Origin: Myxococcota bacterium
GTDB taxonomy: Bacteria; Myxococcota_A; UBA796; UBA2385
DNA length: 64,000 nucleotides
Direction: 5' to 3'
Assembly (NCBI GenBank): GCA_044344255.1
Contig: JBIJDH010000018.1
Span: forward strand, 1 to 64,000
The first letter of the stretch is position 1. Each line of letters opens with the position of its first letter. The notes under the pieces are model-generated. The model was not told the origin of the DNA, did not search any database, and saw only the letters and a list, made by a program, of their open reading frames with translations. This document shows, in pieces, positions 47,803 through 62,002 of the stretch. The position numbers and the translations under genes are program-made.

Positions 47803-49725
47803 GTGGAACCAGCAGACGATACAACCGGCGTAGAGATCGTCATCGAGGCGCAGCGTCCGCAGGACTCGGCGACGGACCGCAGGCTCGACCGCGCGGCGAT
47901 CGAAGCGCTCCCCGGCCGCTCGGCGGACGACATGCTGCGCGCCATGCCAGGGCTCCACCAGTCGGCCCACGGCGGCCACGGGAAGGCGTACCAGTACTTC
48001 CTCCGCGGCTTCGACGCGGTTCACGGCTCCGACATCGCCGTCTCGCTCGAGGGCGTGCCGCTCAACGAGGTCTCCAACGTCCACGGGCACGGCTACCTCG
48101 ACCTGCACTTCATCCCACCGGCCGTCGTGCGCGGGCTCACGCTCCGGCCGGGGACCTGGCGCGCGGACGCCGGCGACTTCGCCGTGGCGGGGTCCGCCGA
48201 CTTCTCGCTGGGCCTCGAAGAGCCCGGCGGCCAGGTCTGGATCGGGGGAGGGACCGACGTGAGCGGAGCCGCCACCCTCGCGTGGCGCCCGCAGAAGTCC
48301 AAGCCGGGCACCTTTCTGGTCGCGGACGTGGACCTCGGCCAGGGCGTCGGGGACGCTCGCTCCTGGCGGCAGCTCCGCGCCGGGGGCGGGTGGGAAGGTG
48401 AGCTCGGTGGCGTGCACGCACGCGGCTTCCTCCTCGCCTACGACGGCGTCTTCGAGTCGCCGGGCGTGCTTCGGGAGGACGACCTCGCGGCGGGAGAGGT
48501 GGAGTTCTACGACGCGTACCCGGCCGCGGGCGGGGGCGCGTCTCGCCGGGTCCTCGCGAGCGCGCTGGTTTCGGGTGGAGACCGCGTGCCCTGGCGCGCC
48601 ACGCTCTACGGCGGGTGGCGAGACCTGCGGCTGGTCCAGAACTACACAGGGTTCTACGGCGACGACGGGCACGGCGACGGCACCGCGCAGGCGCACCACG
48701 CGGGCCTGGCGGGTGGCCGGTTCGAGGCGGGTTGGGCGGGTCCGCTCGGCCTCGTCCTGAAGGGCGGGCTCGACGCGCGCGGCGACTTCTTCCGCCAGAC
48801 CGAGGAGGGCGTGCTCTCGGACGGCGCGGTGTGGGAGACCCCCATCGACGCGACCGCCCAACAGGGCGATGTCGGCGCCTGGATCGCGGCGCCGTGGTCG
48901 ATCGCGCCCTGGCTCCGGATCGAGCCCGGCCTGCGCGCCGAGCTCCTCCTCGTGCACCCCGAGGAAGGCGACCCGGGCGTCGCGTGGGCGCCCGTGCTCG
49001 CCCCCAAGGCCGCCGTCACCCTGTTCCCCCGCGGCCCCGTGACCGCGTTCGCCGCCTACGGCCGTGGCTTTCGCTCCCCGGAGGCCCGGGGAACTGAGCC
49101 CGGGGAGATCGCCCCCGTCGCCCTGTCAGACTCCGCCGAGCTCGGGACGCGGGCGCACCCGACCGACTGGTTGGAGCTGCGGGCGGCGGGGTTCGCGACG
49201 CTCATCTCCGACGAGATCGTGTTCGACCACGCCGCCGCGCGCTTCCTCGCGACGGGCAGCACACGCCGCGTCGGCTTCGACGGCGGCGTGACCGCCCACC
49301 CCATCGAGCCGCTGCGCGTGGAGGTCGACGTCACCTGGTCGGACGGTGTCTACGTCGCGACGGGCGAGCCCATCCCATACGCCCCGCGCCTCCTCGTGGT
49401 CGGCGGGGTCTACACGGACGACCTGCCCGTCGGCCCCCTCCACCTGACCGCCGGCGTGCGCGCGTGGCTCCTCGGCCCTCGCCCCCTGCCCGGCGGCTTC
49501 TCCAGTCACACCGCCGGCGTCGTGGATGTCACCGCGCGGGCAGATTGGAAGAAGTGGAGCCTGTCGCTCGATGTCGACAACGTGCTCGGCAGCCAGTGGC
49601 GCGACGGGGAGTTCGTCTTTCCGTCGCATTGGGACCTCGACGAAGCACGCAGCGAGCTGCCCGTGCGTCACTTCACAGCGGGGGCGCCGACGGTGGCGCG
49701 CCTCGCGATCGGACGGAGCTTCTGA
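47803..49725 (+). CDS. TonB-dependent receptor with His-rich plug (metal uptake inferred)
   Basis: LRAMPGL, HGGHGKAYQYFLRGFDAVHG, NVHGHGYLD, PGLRAE, YGRGFRSP, DNV, C-terminal Phe; no signal peptide visible. Confidence 0.8.
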   Translation: MEPADDTTGVEIVIEAQRPQDSATDRRLDRAAIEALPGRSADDMLRAMPGLHQSAHGGHGKAYQYFLRGFDAVHGSDIAVSLEGVPLNEVSNVHGHGYLDLHFIPPAVVRGLTLRPGTWRADAGDFAVAGSADFSLGLEEPGGQVWIGGGTDVSGAATLAWRPQKSKPGTFLVADVDLGQGVGDARSWRQLRAGGGWEGELGGVHARGFLLAYDGVFESPGVLREDDLAAGEVEFYDAYPAAGGGASRRVLASALVSGGDRVPWRATLYGGWRDLRLVQNYTGFYGDDGHGDGTAQAHHAGLAGGRFEAGWAGPLGLVLKGGLDARGDFFRQTEEGVLSDGAVWETPIDATAQQGDVGAWIAAPWSIAPWLRIEPGLRAELLLVHPEEGDPGVAWAPVLAPKAAVTLFPRGPVTAFAAYGRGFRSPEARGTEPGEIAPVALSDSAELGTRAHPTDWLELRAAGFATLISDEIVFDHAAARFLATGSTRRVGFDGGVTAHPIEPLRVEVDVTWSDGVYVATGEPIPYAPRLLVVGGVYTDDLPVGPLHLTAGVRAWLLGPRPLPGGFSSHTAGVVDVTARADWKKWSLSLDVDNVLGSQWRDGEFVFPSHWDLDEARSELPVRHFTAGAPTVARLAIGRSF

Positions 49726-50384
49726 TGCTGCTCACCCTGCTCCTGGCCTGCGGGACCACCGACCGCGCCCTGCTCACGGTGCCCGTGACGTTCAAGGGCG
49801 CCACCGCCGACGTTGCGCCCGTCGACGGCGTCGCCGTCACCCTCACGGAGGCGTCCGTGACCGTCTTCGACGTGCGGATGGAGGGCCTCGCGCAGACGGC
49901 GTGGCGCTGGTCCCCCATCCCGAGCGCGCAGGCACACCCCGGGCACGACTTCGCGGGCGACCTGGCGGGCGAGCTCACGGGGACGTGGACCCTCGATCTG
50001 CTCGGCGGCGACGCTCTCCTCGGGGACGCCTCCTGCTACGAAGGCGAGTACGCGACCGGGCGGATCTCGCTGCTGGCGGACCCCGTCTCCGTGCTCGCCG
50101 GTACCGCGACCGTGGACGGCGTGGCCACCCCGTTCCGCTTCGAGCTCGCGCCCGCTCAGGAGATCACCGGCCTCTCCTTCGAGACCACGATGGCGGCCGC
50201 TGCGCCGCCGTCCGGAATCTCCCTGTCCGTCGACCTTGCCCACGCCCTCTCGTTCGCCGACTGGCGGACGGTCGACGCGGACGGAGACGGCACGCTCACC
50301 ACCGCCGACGGCACCCTCGCGAACACCGTGCTCTTCGGCATCGTCGCCACGCCCACCTGGACCCTCACCCCGGAGCCCTCATGA
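49725..50384 (+). CDS. Lipoprotein with AHPGH motif
   Basis: MLLTLLLAC; SAQAHPGHD; EF-hand-like DADGDG; TGATG coupling. Confidence 0.7.
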   Translation: MLLTLLLACGTTDRALLTVPVTFKGATADVAPVDGVAVTLTEASVTVFDVRMEGLAQTAWRWSPIPSAQAHPGHDFAGDLAGELTGTWTLDLLGGDALLGDASCYEGEYATGRISLLADPVSVLAGTATVDGVATPFRFELAPAQEITGLSFETTMAAAAPPSGISLSVDLAHALSFADWRTVDADGDGTLTTADGTLANTVLFGIVATPTWTLTPEPS

Positions 50385-51106
50385 CCCTCTTCTCCCTTCT
50401 CCCCCTCCTCGTCGCCTGCGGCGGCGGCACCTGGACCGTCAACACCTGGGGCGAGGAGTACATCGAAGACACGATGCCCGCCGAGATCTTCGAGGATGGC
50501 TGCTCCGTCACCTACGACAGCTTCGAGATCGCGATGAGTGGCGTCGCGCTGCTCGACGGCGACGGCACTGAGGTGGGCGTGGTCGACGGCGAGCAGGTGT
50601 TCGACCTCACCGCCGCCGGCCCCCACGACGTCGGCTCCGCGGAGGTGTCCGCCACCCACTACGCCAACGCCCGCTACGTGATCGCGCCGTCCGAAGAGCT
50701 TGGCGGCAGCTCCGTCGTCGCGGCAGGCACCCTCACCTGCGGCGCCGAATCGGTGACGTTCGACTGGGCGTTCGACACCGACACCACCTACGAGTGCGAG
50801 CCGGCCGACCTCACCATCCCCGCCGGGGGCGAGGACAGCACCGAGTACACCATCCACGGCGACCACCTCTTCTACGACGGGCTGGAGAACGAGGACGCCG
50901 TGGTCCGCGGGCAGGCGATCGCGGACGCGGACGGCGATGCCGATGGCGTGGTCACCCTCGCGGAGCTCGAGGCCGTGTCCGTCGCGACGCTCGGCTACGA
51001 GGTGGGCCAATACAGCGAGGTGACGAACCTCGCGCAGTTCGTGCGCTTCCTGACCCAGACGCTCGGCCATGTCGACGGCGAGGGGCACTGCCAGGTGGAC
51101 CTGTAG
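50381..51106 (+). CDS. Putative metal-binding lipoprotein
   Basis: LVAC lipobox; WGEEYIE, TIHGDHLFYD, DADGDADG, GHVDGEGHC. Confidence 0.7.
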   Translation: MTLFSLLPLLVACGGGTWTVNTWGEEYIEDTMPAEIFEDGCSVTYDSFEIAMSGVALLDGDGTEVGVVDGEQVFDLTAAGPHDVGSAEVSATHYANARYVIAPSEELGGSSVVAAGTLTCGAESVTFDWAFDTDTTYECEPADLTIPAGGEDSTEYTIHGDHLFYDGLENEDAVVRGQAIADADGDADGVVTLAELEAVSVATLGYEVGQYSEVTNLAQFVRFLTQTLGHVDGEGHCQVDL

Positions 51107-51107
51107 C

Positions 51108-51869
51108 GTGCTGCTGCTCGCTTCCATCGCGTTCGCGCACGACCTCTGGCTCTCGCCGGCCACGCTCACCCCACCGCGTGGCCCCGCGCCCGCCGTCGTT
51201 TTGCGGCTGGGCGAGGACCTCGTGGTGGAGGAGGAGCGGCCCCTCGAGGCCGTGAAGGCCACGCGCTGGGTGCATGCGTGGAAGGGTCGCCGCGAGGAGC
51301 TGCTACGGGACGGAGTCCTCACCCAAATCGGCACGCTCGGGCGCGGGTGGCACGTCCTTGCCATGGATCGCACCCCGGCGCTCCTGGAGCTGCCCGCCGA
51401 CCGCTTCCGCGCCTACCTCGCGGAGGAGGGGCTCACGGACGTCGTGGCGCGCCGGGACGAGCTCGGCGAGGGCGAGGCTCCCGGCCGAGAGCGCTACCGA
51501 CGCTGCCTCAAGGCGCTCGTCCGCGTCGGTGAAGCGCCCTCAGCGGGTTGGGACAGCCGTCTCGGCCAGCCGCTGGAGCTCGTCGCAGCGGATCCGCCGG
51601 CGTCCGTGGAGGCCGGCGCCGACTGGCGCGTCCGCGTGTGGTTCCAGGACGCGCCGCTCCGTGGCGCGCGGCTGCGCCTCACTGTCAACGGCGCGGCGGG
51701 GCCGCGAAGCGTCGACGCCACCTCGGACGCAGAGGGCTACGCCACGTTCGTCGCGCCCGGGGCCGGCGACGCGCTGGTCACCATGGTCCATATGCAACGC
51801 GCGCAACCGGGCGACACGGTGGAGTGGGAGAGCTGGTGGGGGGCACTGTCGCTCCCGCTCGGGCGCTGA
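51108..51869 (+). CDS. DUF4198 domain protein (metal transport associated)
   Basis: AFA-HDLWL N-terminal His, FRAYLAEEGL, ERYRRCLKAL, GQPLEL, SDAEG, WESWW. Confidence 0.75.
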   Translation: MLLLASIAFAHDLWLSPATLTPPRGPAPAVVLRLGEDLVVEEERPLEAVKATRWVHAWKGRREELLRDGVLTQIGTLGRGWHVLAMDRTPALLELPADRFRAYLAEEGLTDVVARRDELGEGEAPGRERYRRCLKALVRVGEAPSAGWDSRLGQPLELVAADPPASVEAGADWRVRVWFQDAPLRGARLRLTVNGAAGPRSVDATSDAEGYATFVAPGAGDALVTMVHMQRAQPGDTVEWESWWGALSLPLGR

Positions 51870-54441: not shown

Positions 54442-55341
54442 ATGGCACCGCCCACCTCCCTCCGCGCCCTTGCCATCGCCGCCTTCGCCACCTTCGGCGC
54501 AGGCTGTACCGGCCACGATCACGACGACACCGCCCACGCCGATGACACCGCGCACGAGGCGGACACCGACACCGATACGGACGCCGACACCGATACGGAC
54601 ACCGACACCGACGTTGTCGACCCCCTGACCACGGACGACGACCTCGACGGCGTGAGCGAGAACGACGGCGACTGCAACGATCGCAACGACGCCGTCTACC
54701 CCGGCGCGCGCGAGCGCAGCTTTGACGGCGTCGACTCCGACTGTGACGGCGCCGAGCTCCCCGCCGGCGGTTCGGACCGCTACGCCGAGGCGCTCCCCCT
54801 CCTCGACACCGACGAGGACGGCGCGGTCTCCTTCGAGGAGTTCGACGCGGCGTGCACCGCCTCGGCGATGGTGCTCGGGGAGGCGAATCCGGGCGTGGTC
54901 CAGACCCACGTGAGCTGCGGCGGCACCAACAGCTGCCGGGGCATGGTCCTGCACCCGTGGAACGAGCTCTACGAGCACGACTGTCGCGGCGTGAACGGCT
55001 GCGCCGGGTGGAGCTGCGTCGAGACGGTGGACGGTGCGGGGCGGGACGGCGCCACCGTCTACACCGAAGCCACGTGCGACTGGTGCCATGGCGGAGAGGG
55101 CACCTTCCTCGTCCACACGCCGGCCGGGGAGGACCCGGAGAGCTGGATCGCCACCTTCTTCGACCGCACCGACACGGAGTTCCGCTCCGCGATCGCCTTC
55201 GGGATGGACGGGATCGACTCCGATGGCGTGGCCACGCGCGACATGCCCGGCTTCCACGAGCGGATCTCCCGGGCCGAGATGGACGCGGTGATCGCGTACA
55301 TCCGCACGCTCCCGGTCGCGGCCCCGCCCGAAGAAGAGTGA
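54442..55341 (+). CDS. Putative MNIO substrate: lipoprotein with bufferin-like Cys repeats fused to cytochrome c
   Basis: Lipobox GAGC; His/Asp tract; DT linker; MopE-like repeat; EF-hand DTDEDGAVSFEEF; CGGTNSCRG and CRGVNGCAG; CDWCH...MPGF...VIAYIRTL. Confidence 0.7.
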   Translation: MAPPTSLRALAIAAFATFGAGCTGHDHDDTAHADDTAHEADTDTDTDADTDTDTDTDVVDPLTTDDDLDGVSENDGDCNDRNDAVYPGARERSFDGVDSDCDGAELPAGGSDRYAEALPLLDTDEDGAVSFEEFDAACTASAMVLGEANPGVVQTHVSCGGTNSCRGMVLHPWNELYEHDCRGVNGCAGWSCVETVDGAGRDGATVYTEATCDWCHGGEGTFLVHTPAGEDPESWIATFFDRTDTEFRSAIAFGMDGIDSDGVATRDMPGFHERISRAEMDAVIAYIRTLPVAAPPEEE

Positions 55342-56150
55342 GCATCGCGCGCGACGCCCTGGGCATCGGCCTGAGGCGCCCGCACGTGGACGCCCTCCTC
55401 GCCGAGCACGCGCCCATCGGCTTCCTCGAGGTGATCGCCGAGAACCACCTCGACGCGGGCTCCCTTCCGCGGGCGCGCCTCGACGAGATCGCGGCGCGCT
55501 ACCCCGTCGTCGGGCACGGCGTCGCGCTGAACCTCGTGGGCGCGGAGCCGCTCGACCTCGTGCACCTGGAGCGCGTTCGGGAGTTGGTGCGGGCCTACGG
55601 GATGCCCTGGTTCAGCGACCACCTCTGCTGGTCGGCCTCCGGCGGGCACCGTCACCACGACCTGTTGCCCGCACCCTACGATCCCGAGCTGGTGCCCTAC
55701 GTGGCCGCCCGCGCGCGCTTCGTGCAGGACTTCCTCGGCGTGCCGTTCGGCATCGAGAACCTCTCGTCCTACGTCGCCTGGGGCCGCGACCGGATGCCGG
55801 AGTGGGAGTTCTATCGGCGAGTCGTGGACGCGTCGGATTGCTGGTACATGCTCGATCTGAACAACATGTATGTGTCGAGCGTGAACCACGGCTTCGACCC
55901 CATGGACTACCTTGCCTCCGTGCGGTGGGACCGGGTGCTCCAAGTGCACATGGCGGGGCACCTCGTGCGGCCCGACGGGCTCCGGCACGACACGCACGAC
56001 CGTCCCGTCTGCGCCGAGGTCTGGGCGCTGTACCGCGAGGCGTGGGCGCTGGGCGGGCCGTTCCCGACGCTGCTGGAGTGGGACGACCAGGTGCCGCCGC
56101 TGCCCGAGGTGCTCGCCGAGGTCGCCAAGGCGGCGAGCGTGCGCACGTGA
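55338..56150 (+). CDS. DUF692 family multinuclear non-heme iron oxidative enzyme (MNIO)
   Basis: GIGLR, LEVIAEN, HGV, SDHLCW, DLLP.PY, IENLSSY, LDLNN, HMAGH, DTHD, LLEWD; GTGA overlap. Confidence 0.9.
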   Translation: MSIARDALGIGLRRPHVDALLAEHAPIGFLEVIAENHLDAGSLPRARLDEIAARYPVVGHGVALNLVGAEPLDLVHLERVRELVRAYGMPWFSDHLCWSASGGHRHHDLLPAPYDPELVPYVAARARFVQDFLGVPFGIENLSSYVAWGRDRMPEWEFYRRVVDASDCWYMLDLNNMYVSSVNHGFDPMDYLASVRWDRVLQVHMAGHLVRPDGLRHDTHDRPVCAEVWALYREAWALGGPFPTLLEWDDQVPPLPEVLAEVAKAASVRT

Positions 56151-57067
56151 CGTCGCTTCCGCCGCCGCCCCCGTGGCTCGCGCCGCTCCAGGAGGCGTTC
56201 GGCGCGCTGCTGGAGACGCCGCTCGACGCGACGGGCGGCACCCTGCGCTCCTCTGCCGACGCGCCGGCGCTCACGGCGGCGCTGGCGGACCCGGCCACGG
56301 CGCGGGCGCGCCTCGCGCTCTACCACGAGCAGTACTGGATGCGCCTCTACGGCTCGCTCCACGCGGAGCTGCCGCGGTTCGCGCAGGTCGTCGGGTATTG
56401 GCGCTTCAATGGGCTCGCCACGCTCCACCTCCGTGAGGCGCCGCCCACGCGCGTGGACCTCGCGCGCTGCGGAGACGGCCTCGCCGCGCGGCTCCTCGCC
56501 GGGATCGATCGCGTCGCCGCCACGGCCCCGCCGCCCGGCACCCCCGACACCCGGCCGATCGGACTGCTGGTCACAGTCGCGGGCCCCTGGGAAGCCGCGC
56601 TGCGATCGGTGTCGGCGCCCGTCGACCTCGCCCGGCAGGCGCTTCGAATGGACGAGGCGGCGCGCCGCGCCCTCGCCTCCCCGTTCGCGGGCGTGTGGCG
56701 GCCGTCCGGCGCCGACGCCGCCTCGCTCCCCGAGCGGCGGCTGCGCTTCGCGCCGTCGTTCCGCCTCCTGCGGGAGGACTGGGCCCTCGCCGAACGCGCC
56801 GTGCCATCGGACCCGCCCGCGCCCTTCGCGCGCCACGCCGAGCCGTGGTTCTGGGTGTCGTTCCGCGCCGAGCGCACGACCGCCCTGGCGCGGGTCGAGC
56901 CGGGCTTCGCGCGACTCCTGGCGCTGGCTGCGGAGCGGCCGTTCGGCGAGGCGATCGACGCGCTCGCGCAAGGCCGCGACCCGACGGAGACGGCGGCGTT
57001 GGGCGCGGCGCTCCCCGGTTGGATCGAGCGCGCGTTGACCTCCGGATGGTGGATCGGGGCGCGGTGA
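56147..57067 (+). CDS. DUF2063-like MNIO partner protein
   Basis: LQEAFG, RLALYHEQYWMRL, LPRF..VVG...F; coupled to the DUF692 gene. Confidence 0.75.
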   Translation: MTSLPPPPPWLAPLQEAFGALLETPLDATGGTLRSSADAPALTAALADPATARARLALYHEQYWMRLYGSLHAELPRFAQVVGYWRFNGLATLHLREAPPTRVDLARCGDGLAARLLAGIDRVAATAPPPGTPDTRPIGLLVTVAGPWEAALRSVSAPVDLARQALRMDEAARRALASPFAGVWRPSGADAASLPERRLRFAPSFRLLREDWALAERAVPSDPPAPFARHAEPWFWVSFRAERTTALARVEPGFARLLALAAERPFGEAIDALAQGRDPTETAALGAALPGWIERALTSGWWIGAR

Positions 57068-57222: not shown

Positions 57223-58041
<819 letters not shown>

Positions 58042-59621: not shown

Positions 59622-60812
59622 TCACTCCTCGAACGGATCGCTGTGGGCCGGGTTCTCCACGAACGTGTGGTCCGTGAACGATTCGAGGAACGCGACCACC
59701 GCGTCGATCTCCTCGTCCGTCGCGTCGAATCCCCGGATGAGACCCGACTTCAGAGGGCTGACGCGGCCGTCTCCCGCGTAGTCCCCGTCCTCGATCACGC
59801 GCCCGCCCGCAGCATAGTGCTCGACCATCTCGCGGAGGGTGGGGATGCTCCCGTCGTGCGTGTACGGCGCGGTGAGCTCGACGTTGCGCAGGCTGGGGGG
59901 ACGGAAGAATCCACGCAGATCGAGATCGATCCGAACGTCGTAGAGCCCCTGATCGTAGGCTGGATAGCTCCCCTCTCCGTCGACGTTGTAGAGGCCCGTG
60001 TTGAAGAACGGGTATTGGATCGTGTCAGCGGTCGTCCGCCAGTCACGGTAGGAGCCGGTCGCGTTCGTGCCACCATGGCAGTGGAAACACTCGAACTTCT
60101 CCCCGTTGAACAACGTCATGCCCGACTTCTGCTGATCGGTCAGGGCGTCCCGGTCGCCGGAGACGAACCGGTCATAGGCGCTGTCGCCCGACACGAGGCT
60201 CCGGCAGAAGCTGGCCAGGGAGTACGCGATCTTGTTGAGCGTGGCGCCTGACTCGCTCTCCGGGAACGCCTCAGCGAACATGCCTGCGTAGGTGGGGTCG
60301 TCATCGAAGCGCGATAGGACCTCGGCCTGAACGCCGTCGTTGACGCCCAACTCCACCGGGTTGTCCCCGGTGATGGGCACGAGGAGCTGGTTCTCCATCT
60401 CCAACATGCCATCGTGCGCCCACGTCAGCGTGGAGTACCAAGCGACATTCGCCAGCCCCGGGCTGTTGCGAACCAACGTCTCCCCGGTCGAGCCCTGCGG
60501 GGAGCTCTTGCCGTCGGAGAACGCCAGCTCCTGGAGGTGGCAGTTCGCGCACGCCTGGGTCCCGTTTCCCGAGAGGCGCTCGTCGTAGAACAGGTATCGA
60601 CCGAGCTCGATCTTCTCGGGCGTGAGCGGATTGTAGTCCGGGATGTACGGCACCTCGAGGTGGTCCGGCAGGTCCAGGAGCTCGCGGACGTAGGCCTGCT
60701 CGTCGCCCTCGGCCGCGGGCGCGTCCGGATCGACGACCTCGTCGGGCTCGCACGCCGCGACTCCACCCAGCCCGAGCACGACGACGAGACGGAACGCCGG
60801 GATGGATCGCAC
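59622..60812 (-). CDS. mbnH: MbnH-family di-heme (MauG/bCcP-like) enzyme
   Basis: LGRYLFYD.RLS, CANCH, RNSP, LTWA, CFHCH, PSLRNVELTAPY.HDGS; directly downstream of the MbnP-like gene. Confidence 0.85.
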   Translation of the reverse strand: MRSIPAFRLVVVLGLGGVAACEPDEVVDPDAPAAEGDEQAYVRELLDLPDHLEVPYIPDYNPLTPEKIELGRYLFYDERLSGNGTQACANCHLQELAFSDGKSSPQGSTGETLVRNSPGLANVAWYSTLTWAHDGMLEMENQLLVPITGDNPVELGVNDGVQAEVLSRFDDDPTYAGMFAEAFPESESGATLNKIAYSLASFCRSLVSGDSAYDRFVSGDRDALTDQQKSGMTLFNGEKFECFHCHGGTNATGSYRDWRTTADTIQYPFFNTGLYNVDGEGSYPAYDQGLYDVRIDLDLRGFFRPPSLRNVELTAPYTHDGSIPTLREMVEHYAAGGRVIEDGDYAGDGRVSPLKSGLIRGFDATDEEIDAVVAFLESFTDHTFVENPAHSDPFEE

Positions 60813-60819
60813 GTGGCCC

Positions 60820-61773
60820 TCAGTTCACGCTGAACGCGAGGTTGTCCGCGGCGGCCGACGCCCCGGAGGCGAGGTCGAGGCCCACGTTCGCGAAGAACGG
60901 CGCGCAGTCGGGCTGCATGGAGGACGAATGACACTCGACTCCGACCCCCTCACCGATGACCTCGAAGGTCTCGGGGTCGTAGATGGGCGAGAGAAAATCG
61001 AGCCCGGCGAGGAGCGTGGGGATGTCGAGCGTGACGACGTTCGTCTCGAGGTCGAAGTCGGTGAGCTCTACCGAGGGAGTGTTCACGTACCCGCACTCGT
61101 CGCGGGACTCGAGCGCGAGCTCGCCGTCGCCTGCGCAGTCGACGCTGCCGATGTGGAGATAGCCCTCTCCGGTCTCGGTTCCGTCGTCCACCGTCATGTT
61201 GAACGCGAGGTGACGGTATCCGGTGGCCCACGACCAGTAGAGCTCGTTCAGCGGGGAGGGAGCTGCCTCCACGGAACCGGAGCCGATCACCTCCTGCATG
61301 AGGGCCTGGGGGACGCCGACATCGAACGACACCGAGGCGACGTGGTGCACGATCGTGGAGCCGGTGATGGCGTCGTTGGTCCGCGCGGTGCCTTCCGAGA
61401 AGCTGATGGCGGAGGCGACGCAGCTGCCGTCGGTGTTGCCGGTGAGATCGATCAGCCCGACCCATCCAGCCGCGCCGGTGTACTGGAAGTCGTTCGCGTC
61501 GAAGGTCGCCTCGACGGCGGCCCCGTTCTCGTCCCAGAACTGTACGTTGGACACGAAGAACCGGAGGTCGCTCATCCCGACGGTGTGCTGGCCGGCCGGG
61601 CCGAGGCCCGCGACGGGTGTGGTGCAGTCGGCGGGCGCGCCGTCGGCGGTCGCCTGGAAGCGGAGGCTGAAGGCCTCGGCCTCGTCATGATGCTCGTCCT
61701 CTTCCTTGGGATCGCAGGCGATGACGGAGAGCAACGGGATGAACAGGCAGAGGCTCGGATGGGCGCGGAACAT
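60820..61773 (-). CDS. mbnP: MbnP-family copper-binding lipoprotein
   Basis: Lipobox VIAC; DLRFFVSN, FDVGVP, PLN.LYWSWATGY (WxW), LHIGS..C, ECHS. Confidence 0.85.
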   Translation of the reverse strand: MFRAHPSLCLFIPLLSVIACDPKEEDEHHDEAEAFSLRFQATADGAPADCTTPVAGLGPAGQHTVGMSDLRFFVSNVQFWDENGAAVEATFDANDFQYTGAAGWVGLIDLTGNTDGSCVASAISFSEGTARTNDAITGSTIVHHVASVSFDVGVPQALMQEVIGSGSVEAAPSPLNELYWSWATGYRHLAFNMTVDDGTETGEGYLHIGSVDCAGDGELALESRDECGYVNTPSVELTDFDLETNVVTLDIPTLLAGLDFLSPIYDPETFEVIGEGVGVECHSSSMQPDCAPFFANVGLDLASGASAAADNLAFSVN

Positions 61774-61830
61774 GGGCGGCCCCAGTAACGATGGTGGCAC
61801 GAGGCTATGCCATGCCGTCCGCCGCCGTGA

Positions 61831-61847
61831 TGCGGCATGTTGTCGCA
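61831..61847. promoter_or_regulatory. RegA/RegR-type box upstream of mbnP
   Basis: TGCGGCATGTTGTCGCA (GCGGC-N5-GTCGC). Confidence 0.7.
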
Positions 61848-61884
61848 GCACTCTGCCCGTGGCGGCCCGACTCGTCGAACGCAG

Positions 61885-62002
61885 CGTGTCCAGCGGGTAC
61901 TTCCTCAACGACACGGCTCCGTTGGAGGAGCGCGAGCCGGCCTCGTCGTGGCACGCGGCAGCGCGCGTGACCCCTCGGTGGTTGTGGCCGGGTGATGGGC
62001 GG
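61885..62002 (+). repeat. Diverged 118-bp direct repeat of 53299-53416
   Basis: Encodes VSSGYFLNDTAPLEEREPASSWHAAARVTPRWLWPGDGR versus VSGGWFLYDTVPLEEPEATSSWHVAARVTARWLWRGDGR. Confidence 0.8.

Follow-up and report, generated by a model that had tools for sequence, protein, structure and literature searches.

What does an MNIO enzyme modify when the gene in front of it encodes not a small peptide but a 299-residue lipoprotein ending in a cytochrome c? The question is raised by an operon in the window, a 64,000-nucleotide stretch of contig JBIJDH010000018.1 from a Myxococcota bacterium (assembly GCA_044344255.1). Three plus-strand open reading frames, at 54442-55341 (299 aa), 55338-56150 (270 aa) and 56147-57067 (306 aa), are joined by a 4-nt overlap (GTGA) at both junctions, as a sequence-only reading of the window had described. 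That reading took the first gene for a precursor with bufferin-like Cys repeats and the others for an MNIO (DUF692) enzyme and a DUF2063-like partner, and proposed that a metal site made by the MNIO is wired to the heme. We refer to the three products as P0001 (299 aa), P0002 and P0003, and to the source genome (8.18 Mb, 95% complete) as G000; other L-, P- and G-numbers denote the loci, proteins and genomes compared. Our analysis points, with a probability of roughly 0.45, to an operon for an MNIO-modified, membrane-anchored copper-heme protein in which the heme changes the oxidation state of the copper.

The profile models PF05114, PF09836 and, in P0001, PF00034 are all matched above their cut-offs, in line with the proposed identities. 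P0002 (55338-56150) scores 314.9 bits on PF05114 and, among five MNIO models, fits NF050167 (BufB) best, at 290 bits against a cut-off of 310. Invariant in 39 MNIOs are H60, D94, H95, E140, D173, N176, H204, D218, H220, E247 and D249, some of which we take to be metal ligands. When mapped via 3bww, the E247-W-D249-D250 segment places Asp at the positions of the FonB catalytic Asp249 and of the Cys-Lys-type Asp; position 250 is Ala in most enzymes linked to the stand-alone relatives described below. P0003 (56147-57067), in the position of BufC (PME-type 1), matches PF09836 (DUF2063) with 41.9 bits (cut-off 27.2); no solved relative was found that would support a C-terminal RRE fold.

The core of the putative precursor is a Cys-rich segment in which two CxGxNxCxG units had been seen at about 54916-55017, coordinates that correspond exactly to C159-C192. 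Both units are present, at C159 and C181 (the motif occurs three times in the six frames of the whole 8.18-Mb genome, twice inside gene 1), but the domain, at 54823-55026, also takes in invariant C138 and C192, giving six cysteines (C138, C159, C165, C181, C187, C192) and H179. A protein search with P0001 returned 132 matches among 3018 candidates. Aligning P0001 with 92 full-length relatives, after omission of 3 partial sequences and 25 repeat- or fragment-only matches, showed that C78, C101, C138, C159, C181, C187, C192, C212, C215, H216 and M268 are invariant in all 93; C165 is kept in 88 of these MopE-type sequences.

A profile search of 401 genomes revealed three forms of the family: the MopE-type fusion, a shorter one that lacks the MopE-like repeat and the EF-hand, and a stand-alone lipoprotein that terminates right behind the sixth Cys. 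A profile of the six-Cys domain alone gathered 201 clusters at 50% identity, the best 150 of which were used for counts of architecture and conservation: in 85 the domain is followed by a heme motif, which is CxxCH in 76 and more widely spaced in 9, and 14 of the 85 have MopE-like repeats. Another 61 stop behind the domain, and 4, mostly repeats, have another arrangement. Across the 146 fused and stand-alone clusters, C159, C181, C187 and C192 never vary; C138 and H179 persist in 144, and C165 in 139. Pfam holds no model for the domain, sequence searches found no solved relative, and the ESM Atlas gave no match, its leading hits being generic cytochrome c, all under 0.9. AlphaFold2 models a stand-alone member with a pLDDT of 82; a fold search with this model found no clear match (best Z 4.2), a result that shows neither a new nor a known fold. 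Word-seeded searches for shorter or longer forms found none, and these blanks are weak because the full hidden Markov model (HMM) scan did find short forms. The domain also occurs in two to four tandem copies per protein (P0125, P0135, P0186, P0255), and at L143 / L168 (G165:C1:2158437-2159750) three tandem stand-alone genes converge with a single MNIO-DUF2063 pair.

The two units had suggested a known CxGxNxCKG bufferin class. The likeness to bufferin 2 of C. vibrioides (buf2ABC) extends to the bufABC order of precursor, MNIO and DUF2063 genes, the lack of DoxX, export of the precursor, a set of six Cys and CxGxNxC(K/R)G units in common (PMC11626156). The units stand; the class assignment does not, since P0001 reaches only 15 bits (residues 139-192) on NF050166 (Buf2), against a cut-off of 60, and has a different Cys order. 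Of 40 stand-alone members, 33 match NF050166 weakly, the first with 17.8 bits and the best with an E-value of 5.2e-6. Alignment to 15 canonical Buf2 cores placed four Cys and found neither Cys III nor a downstream Cys VI. Instead of the Buf2 I-VI order with its C-terminal helix Cys, the helix Cys here comes first, unit 1 lacks the third Cys, and the last Cys lies five residues past the fifth. A helix-Cys-x3-GG-strand motif found at the end of several canonical Buf2 peptides stands at the start of the six-Cys domain, which hints at a rearrangement relative to Buf2, perhaps a strict circular permutation; hhalign against canonical Buf2 aligned no more than 18 columns (81.7%). His171 was considered as a replacement of Buf2 Cys III and dropped, since the wider family does not conserve it. 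By these alignments the Cys segment is a domain of its own, distinct from canonical Buf2.

If P0001 is the substrate of P0002, then domain and enzyme should travel together. Among 23 genome loci with the fusion, the MNIO lies directly downstream in 21 and DUF2063 comes next in 20 of these; of the two exceptions, one contig ends at the gene and L014 lacks an MNIO. Homologues of the fusion are thus mostly linked to a DUF692 gene, as the sequence-only reading needed them to be. For wider linkage counts 110 loci were collapsed to 82 at 90% domain identity. Of the 28 collapsed fused loci, 24 have an MNIO or partner: it follows the fused gene directly in 21, is divergent in 2 and lies about 4 kb upstream in 1. 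Contig ends truncate 2 more loci, and the last 2 have neither gene. An MNIO or partner accompanies 31 of 53 stand-alone loci; where at least 1 kb of downstream sequence was available, 27 of 35 are linked (25 convergently) and 8 are unlinked.

The enzymes themselves tell the same story. A tree was built of 61 MNIOs, reduced from 80 by de-duplication, with an outgroup that comes from one phylum and holds no Buf1 enzymes. In it, a branch with 100/99 support places all 42 domain-linked MNIOs on one side, apart from 18 canonical-Buf2 MNIOs, and one genome that holds both kinds is separated likewise. In a reverse test on the 401 genomes, from which two long-branch rows were omitted, the nine MNIOs closest to P0002 are all domain-linked; of 20 further MNIOs chosen by similarity alone, 2 grouped inside the branch and have the domain, while 18 fell outside and have no domain within 1.5 kb. 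The source genome yielded no match to a Buf1 or canonical Buf2 precursor (DUF2282 included), and a pattern search of 107 six-Cys loci found no Buf1, canonical Buf2 or EGKCG motif. Because domain-linked MNIOs form one branch apart from the Buf2-linked enzymes, and given the gene order, the linkage and the lack of another precursor match in the genome, the fusion protein is very probably the MNIO substrate. RNA-library contigs from a Sorangium relative (one study) cover the operon and its flanks evenly and therefore are not evidence of transcription.

Two further MNIO genes lie in the source genome, at L003:577-2304 (minus) and L002:1426-2430 (minus); one is a 575-aa fusion with a long C-terminal extension, and no Cys-rich precursor is evident within 1.5 kb of either. 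Other Buf2-like precursors, with HDCAGxNxCKGLGGC repeats, were seen at L170:1748-2620, L171:423-1445, L173:53-472 and L179:2310-2927, and their MNIOs form a separate supported group in the tree.

The C-terminal part of P0001 (55036-55317) is a genuine class I cytochrome c. PF00034 matches residues 202-290 with 31.6 bits (cut-off 21.3), and the CDWCH motif (C212-x-x-C215-H216) and distal M268-P269 are where they had been predicted to be. Among fused sequences the two Cys and the His of the heme motif are kept in 83 of 83 and the distal Met in 81 of 83, and the fold aligns with Kustc0563 (5mxz) at Z 8.0 over 70 residues (root-mean-square deviation 2.0 A). With 5mxz, the NirN cytochrome domain (6rtd) and cytochrome c6 the domain shares CxxCH, distal Met and fold at 23-28% identity; it differs from them as a subfamily of its own, with conserved AFG and NMP segments. 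The linker from the last domain Cys to the first heme Cys measures 17-20 residues in 54 of 82 fused sequences. A profile of the fused cytochrome, searched in the 401 genomes, gave ten matches at E ≤1e-27, all in the fusion, and a next match at 1e-8; the way the profile was built accounts for most of these ten, which leaves the absence of further strong matches as the informative part. On that count the cytochrome subfamily appears, within the 401 genomes, to have strong matches inside the fusion only. System I heme maturation is encoded in the source genome (three PF01578 proteins and CcmE). Atypical heme motifs, CxxxCH and longer, occur in 9 of the 85 fused clusters (P0130, P0143, P0161, P0171, P0176, P0183, P0189, P0195, P0256). 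By these sequence comparisons the family is an uncatalogued group of bufferin-like precursors to which a separate branch of enzymes and a separate subfamily of cytochromes belong.

The precursor gene (54442-55341, in the bufA position) has several further parts. The predicted signal peptide (54442-54507) ends in a lipobox-like GAG-C22: Cys22 directly follows the hydrophobic stretch and is kept, by pattern, in at least 90% of the 93 aligned sequences, so that P0001 is predicted to be an exported lipoprotein. Leaders were compared by a position-specific scoring matrix (PSSM) built on Buf2 leaders. Short and stand-alone members score a median of 2.4 (n 109) and MopE-type members -1.7 (n 93); 176 control lipoprotein N-termini score lowest (-5.2), a contrast inflated by close kin. 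The His/Asp and DT tracts (54514-54612) form a linker modeled at a pLDDT of about 50; the His tract recurs in 4 and the DT tract in 2 of 93 relatives, which makes them private features. The MopE-like acidic repeat (54634-54747, with C78 and C101) matches PF11617 at residues 77-104 with 38.1 bits (cut-off 27); such repeats number 134 in the source genome, come in 1-3 copies per relative and are missing from 71 of the 85 cytochrome-fused clusters, and the likeness of P0001 to the copper protein MopE is limited to this short, generic module. W173 does not vary among the 93 MopE-type sequences but is not conserved more widely. We accordingly rejected both tracts, the repeat and W173 as core features; on this evidence the His tract, the DT linker and the repeat are accessory and are not evidence for copper. 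The EF-hand, noted earlier like the modules above, matches weakly, at residues 121-135 under the cut-off, and its loop (D122-E133, 54805-54840) follows the pattern in 88 of 93 relatives. The helix that leaves this loop (131-140 in the model) doubles as helix one of the six-Cys domain. The AlphaFold2 model of P0001 is confident, with a pLDDT of 85 and a pTM of 0.74, the latter despite about 60 disordered residues, which suggests that the modeled domains pack together.

Which cysteines would be modified? In C. vibrioides Buf2 each of the four central Cys is lighter by 4 Da, and the other two form a strand-helix disulfide (PMC11626156). In the six-Cys domain Arg or Lys follows C165 in 107 of 151 rows and C181 in 94; the residue after C159 and C187 is mostly small, C138 (helix) is followed by D/A/E, and C192 (strand) by V/I. 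Loss of C165 alone, seen in 6 of 151 rows, indicates that it has no obligate disulfide partner. The simplest reading predicts four thiooxazoles (C159, C165, C181, C187) and a C138-C192 disulfide; alternatively, C159 would be an unmodified Cys I.

On the simplest reading, the BufB/BufC-like proteins would oxidize C159, C165, C181 and C187 to 5-thiooxazoles in the cytoplasm (-4 Da each), leaving C22, C78/C101, C138/C192 and the two CxxCH cysteines unmodified. The protein would then be exported by Sec, lipidated at C22 and supplied with heme by Ccm, and the C138-C192 and C78-C101 disulfides would form. The thiooxazoles, perhaps with H179 and H156, would bind copper, and the heme, recharged by the respiratory chain, would reduce bound Cu(II) to the more tightly held Cu(I). 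The product would be a membrane-tethered reductive copper trap or a Cu(I) loader, and stand-alone members its heme-less version. Buf1 binds Cu(II) with a dissociation constant of 6e-15 M and Cu(I) with 7e-20 M (PMC11626156). The approximately 10^5-fold tighter binding of Cu(I) translates by calculation into a shift of the bound couple by about +290 mV. Aqueous copper lies at about +150 mV and His/Met hemes at about +150 to +350 mV. With such a shift electron transfer from heme to copper would run downhill for a typical His/Met heme, and this direction favors the tethered reductive trap or Cu(I) loader. We hold tentatively, and as somewhat short of an even chance, that a thiooxazole-copper cofactor is in electron-transfer contact with heme c in a dedicated redox metalloprotein; in one subfamily a calcium-binding EF-hand is predicted on the same helix.

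Several observations weigh against a heme that acts on copper. The Buf1 affinities may not be transferable to this domain, and both potentials are general values. No gene for an electron donor or acceptor was found conserved nearby among 81 scanned of 214 crudely called neighboring genes, and copper-related neighbors (MbnP/MbnH, YtkA, TonB receptors, FGE-like genes) are sporadic only. Heme is lacking from 61 of the 150 clusters, from which it follows that it is dispensable for the core job of the six-Cys domain. Concerning modification itself, the HMM alignment to canonical Buf2 sets C159 at unmodified Cys I, and the leader of P0001 scores -1.2 on the Buf2 matrix, a weak resemblance. Eight of the 23 fusion loci are Sorangium and so are not independent, and at the fused loci L014 and L059 at least one flank of about 8 kb is free of an MNIO, each genome holding a linked copy elsewhere.

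The same frequency of heme-less members (61 of 150) would fit a protein that is a modified copper buffer with the cytochrome as an unwired passenger, the membrane-tethered bufferin shielding the cytochrome, whose CxxCH thiols are free at maturation, or the two merely sharing an export signal. Bufferins are described as chelators (PMC11626156), and in many bacteria the assembly of c-type cytochromes is disturbed by too much copper (bioRxiv 10.64898/2026.10.17.759849). A passenger should, however, vary or occur alone, and a cytochrome subfamily matched strongly in the fusion only, across the 401 genomes, and joined by a short conserved linker counts against it, as does a domain tree, poorly resolved, with 4 label changes compared to 47 when shuffled; we consider a passenger unlikely. 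At the other extreme, P0001 might not be an MNIO substrate at all, its cysteines forming ordinary disulfides or binding metal unmodified while the enzyme acts elsewhere. This would fit its failure to reach the Buf2 cut-off, the stand-alone genes that mostly converge with the enzyme gene instead of lying upstream (25 of 35) and the loci without an enzyme. It is hard to reconcile with a dedicated enzyme branch, 107 loci in which no Buf1, canonical Buf2 or EGKCG motif was found, the single losses of C165 and the Cys-Arg/Lys motifs, and is the least probable of the explanations considered here.

Two further explanations keep both modification and a working heme. The heme could act on the thiols instead of the copper, oxidizing or reducing a labile S-S bond between modified cysteines, and so gate metal release, a role guessed for DoxX/BufD. 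Buf1 and Buf2 have congeners of -12 and -20 Da with just such a bond between modified residues (PMC11626156), and DoxX was not found in the source genome, near three fused loci or among 81 neighbor proteins. Yet no DoxX lies near the heme-less stand-alone locus of G140 either, the canonical buf2 cluster of that genome having one, C. vibrioides buf2 does without DoxX, and DoxX is dispensable for Buf1 (PMC11626156); such gating is less likely than an unwired passenger. Less likely again is an enzyme that turns over peroxide, superoxide, NO or nitrite at a thiooxazole-copper site, to which the heme relays electrons. Cytochrome c domains commonly supply catalytic sites with electrons. A one-electron heme in fixed linkage and the conserved H179 (144 of 146), with H156 near the Cys loops, would suit this role, but the same residues are conserved in heme-less members, the domain comprises only about 70 residues, and no substrate-related gene is conserved nearby (81 of 214 genes scanned).

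Around the operon, no wider conserved neighborhood was found among the 81 of 214 crudely called genes. Directly behind it, at 57223-58041 (plus), lies a lipoprotein gene with a DT tract and two YtkA-like domains; a YtkA gene also adjoins the MNIO-less fused copy at L059. At 59622-61914 (minus), 2.5 kb from the operon, MbnH (TIGR04039, 453 bits) and MbnP (TIGR04052, 196 bits) are encoded, a pair found also near the L011 fusion. Upstream, a divergent multiheme CxxxxCH/CxxCH lipoprotein gene (TIGR01904; 53499-54329, minus) is operon-adjacent only in the near-identical L004/L161, and 47803-51869 (plus) encodes a TonB-dependent receptor, two lipoproteins without a Pfam match and a DUF4198 protein, similar genes occurring near the L024 fusion. 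DUF3570 stands alongside the fused gene at both L058 and L059, and DUF2271 at L059.

How far is such an architecture new? The sequence-only reading knew of no described example, and here it needs correcting: Antoine et al. 2025 list in silico a Buf1-Cytochrom_C fusion (WP_017136223.1) and a Buf1-Cytochrom_C-FGE-sulfatase fusion (WP_160059411.1) (PMC12452194). These few instances likewise join a bufferin-type domain to a PF00034 cytochrome c, but the domain is the four-Cys DUF2282 (PF10048), which has no match on P0001 at E up to 0.1. Fusing a bufferin to a cytochrome is thus an idea already published in silico; the six-Cys domain and the architecture appear to be new. A literature search found no account of either, with subscription papers and several supplements outside its reach. 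The same survey reports, also in silico, EGKCG-EF-hand fusions and lipoproteins among about 16% of Buf2, and its first precursor screen was limited to <200 residues (PMC12452194). Its table credits Sorangium cellulosum So ce56 with five DUF692 and three DUF2063 proteins, WP_012240314.1 and WP_012240315.1 included, and with zero precursors. The So ce56 locus holds the fusion-MNIO-DUF2063 triad, and WP_012240313.1, annotated only as MopE-related protein, is a member of the fusion family; we infer that WP_012240313.1, WP_012240314.1 and WP_012240315.1 are that triad. As far as the table goes, then, the precursor domain and its architecture were missed, So ce56 being counted with no precursor.

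Other systems share single features. From Buf2 the 299-aa protein is set apart by its cytochrome c, EF-hand and MopE-like repeat and by a separate MNIO branch. The lipidated MNIO products DybA and NedA, DAG-RiPPs, share a lipoprotein signal on the substrate and have no heme domain (PMC13056109, PMC12636315); MNIO modification of >30 kDa proteins is also reported (PMC13056109). DAG-RiPP genome mining was limited to 50-160 aa, a range that excludes the fusion and not all stand-alone members (PMC13056109). Captophorins, the 5-thiooxazole metallophores of MNIO-PME1 clusters, share in their Cys-Lys group the MNIO and DUF2063 partner, the Cys-Arg/Lys motifs and the Asp at the mapped determinant, but their described products are chelating peptides, and neither 'cytochrome' nor 'redox' appears in the main text (PMC13097082).

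The finding supplies the missing precursor of a group of myxobacterial MNIO-DUF2063 pairs that had been orphans, and it provides a cultured representative, Sorangium cellulosum So ce56 (WP_012240313.1). It also brings within reach the questions of how an MNIO would choose four of eleven cysteines while sparing CxxCH and lipobox, and how export would be delayed until so large a substrate is modified. Thiooxazoles made by MNIOs have so far been known only as chelators on small exported peptides. With this family one can ask directly if they may also act as redox cofactors, the built-in heme being an optical reporter and the heme-less members natural controls. To judge by its sequences, the organism might hold a likely enzyme-made copper site beside a heme, controlled by redox chemistry instead of acting as a passive copper sponge. 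If this is true, then the product of MNIO chemistry would be a cofactor with which a protein transfers electrons or performs catalysis, and not a natural-product chelator.

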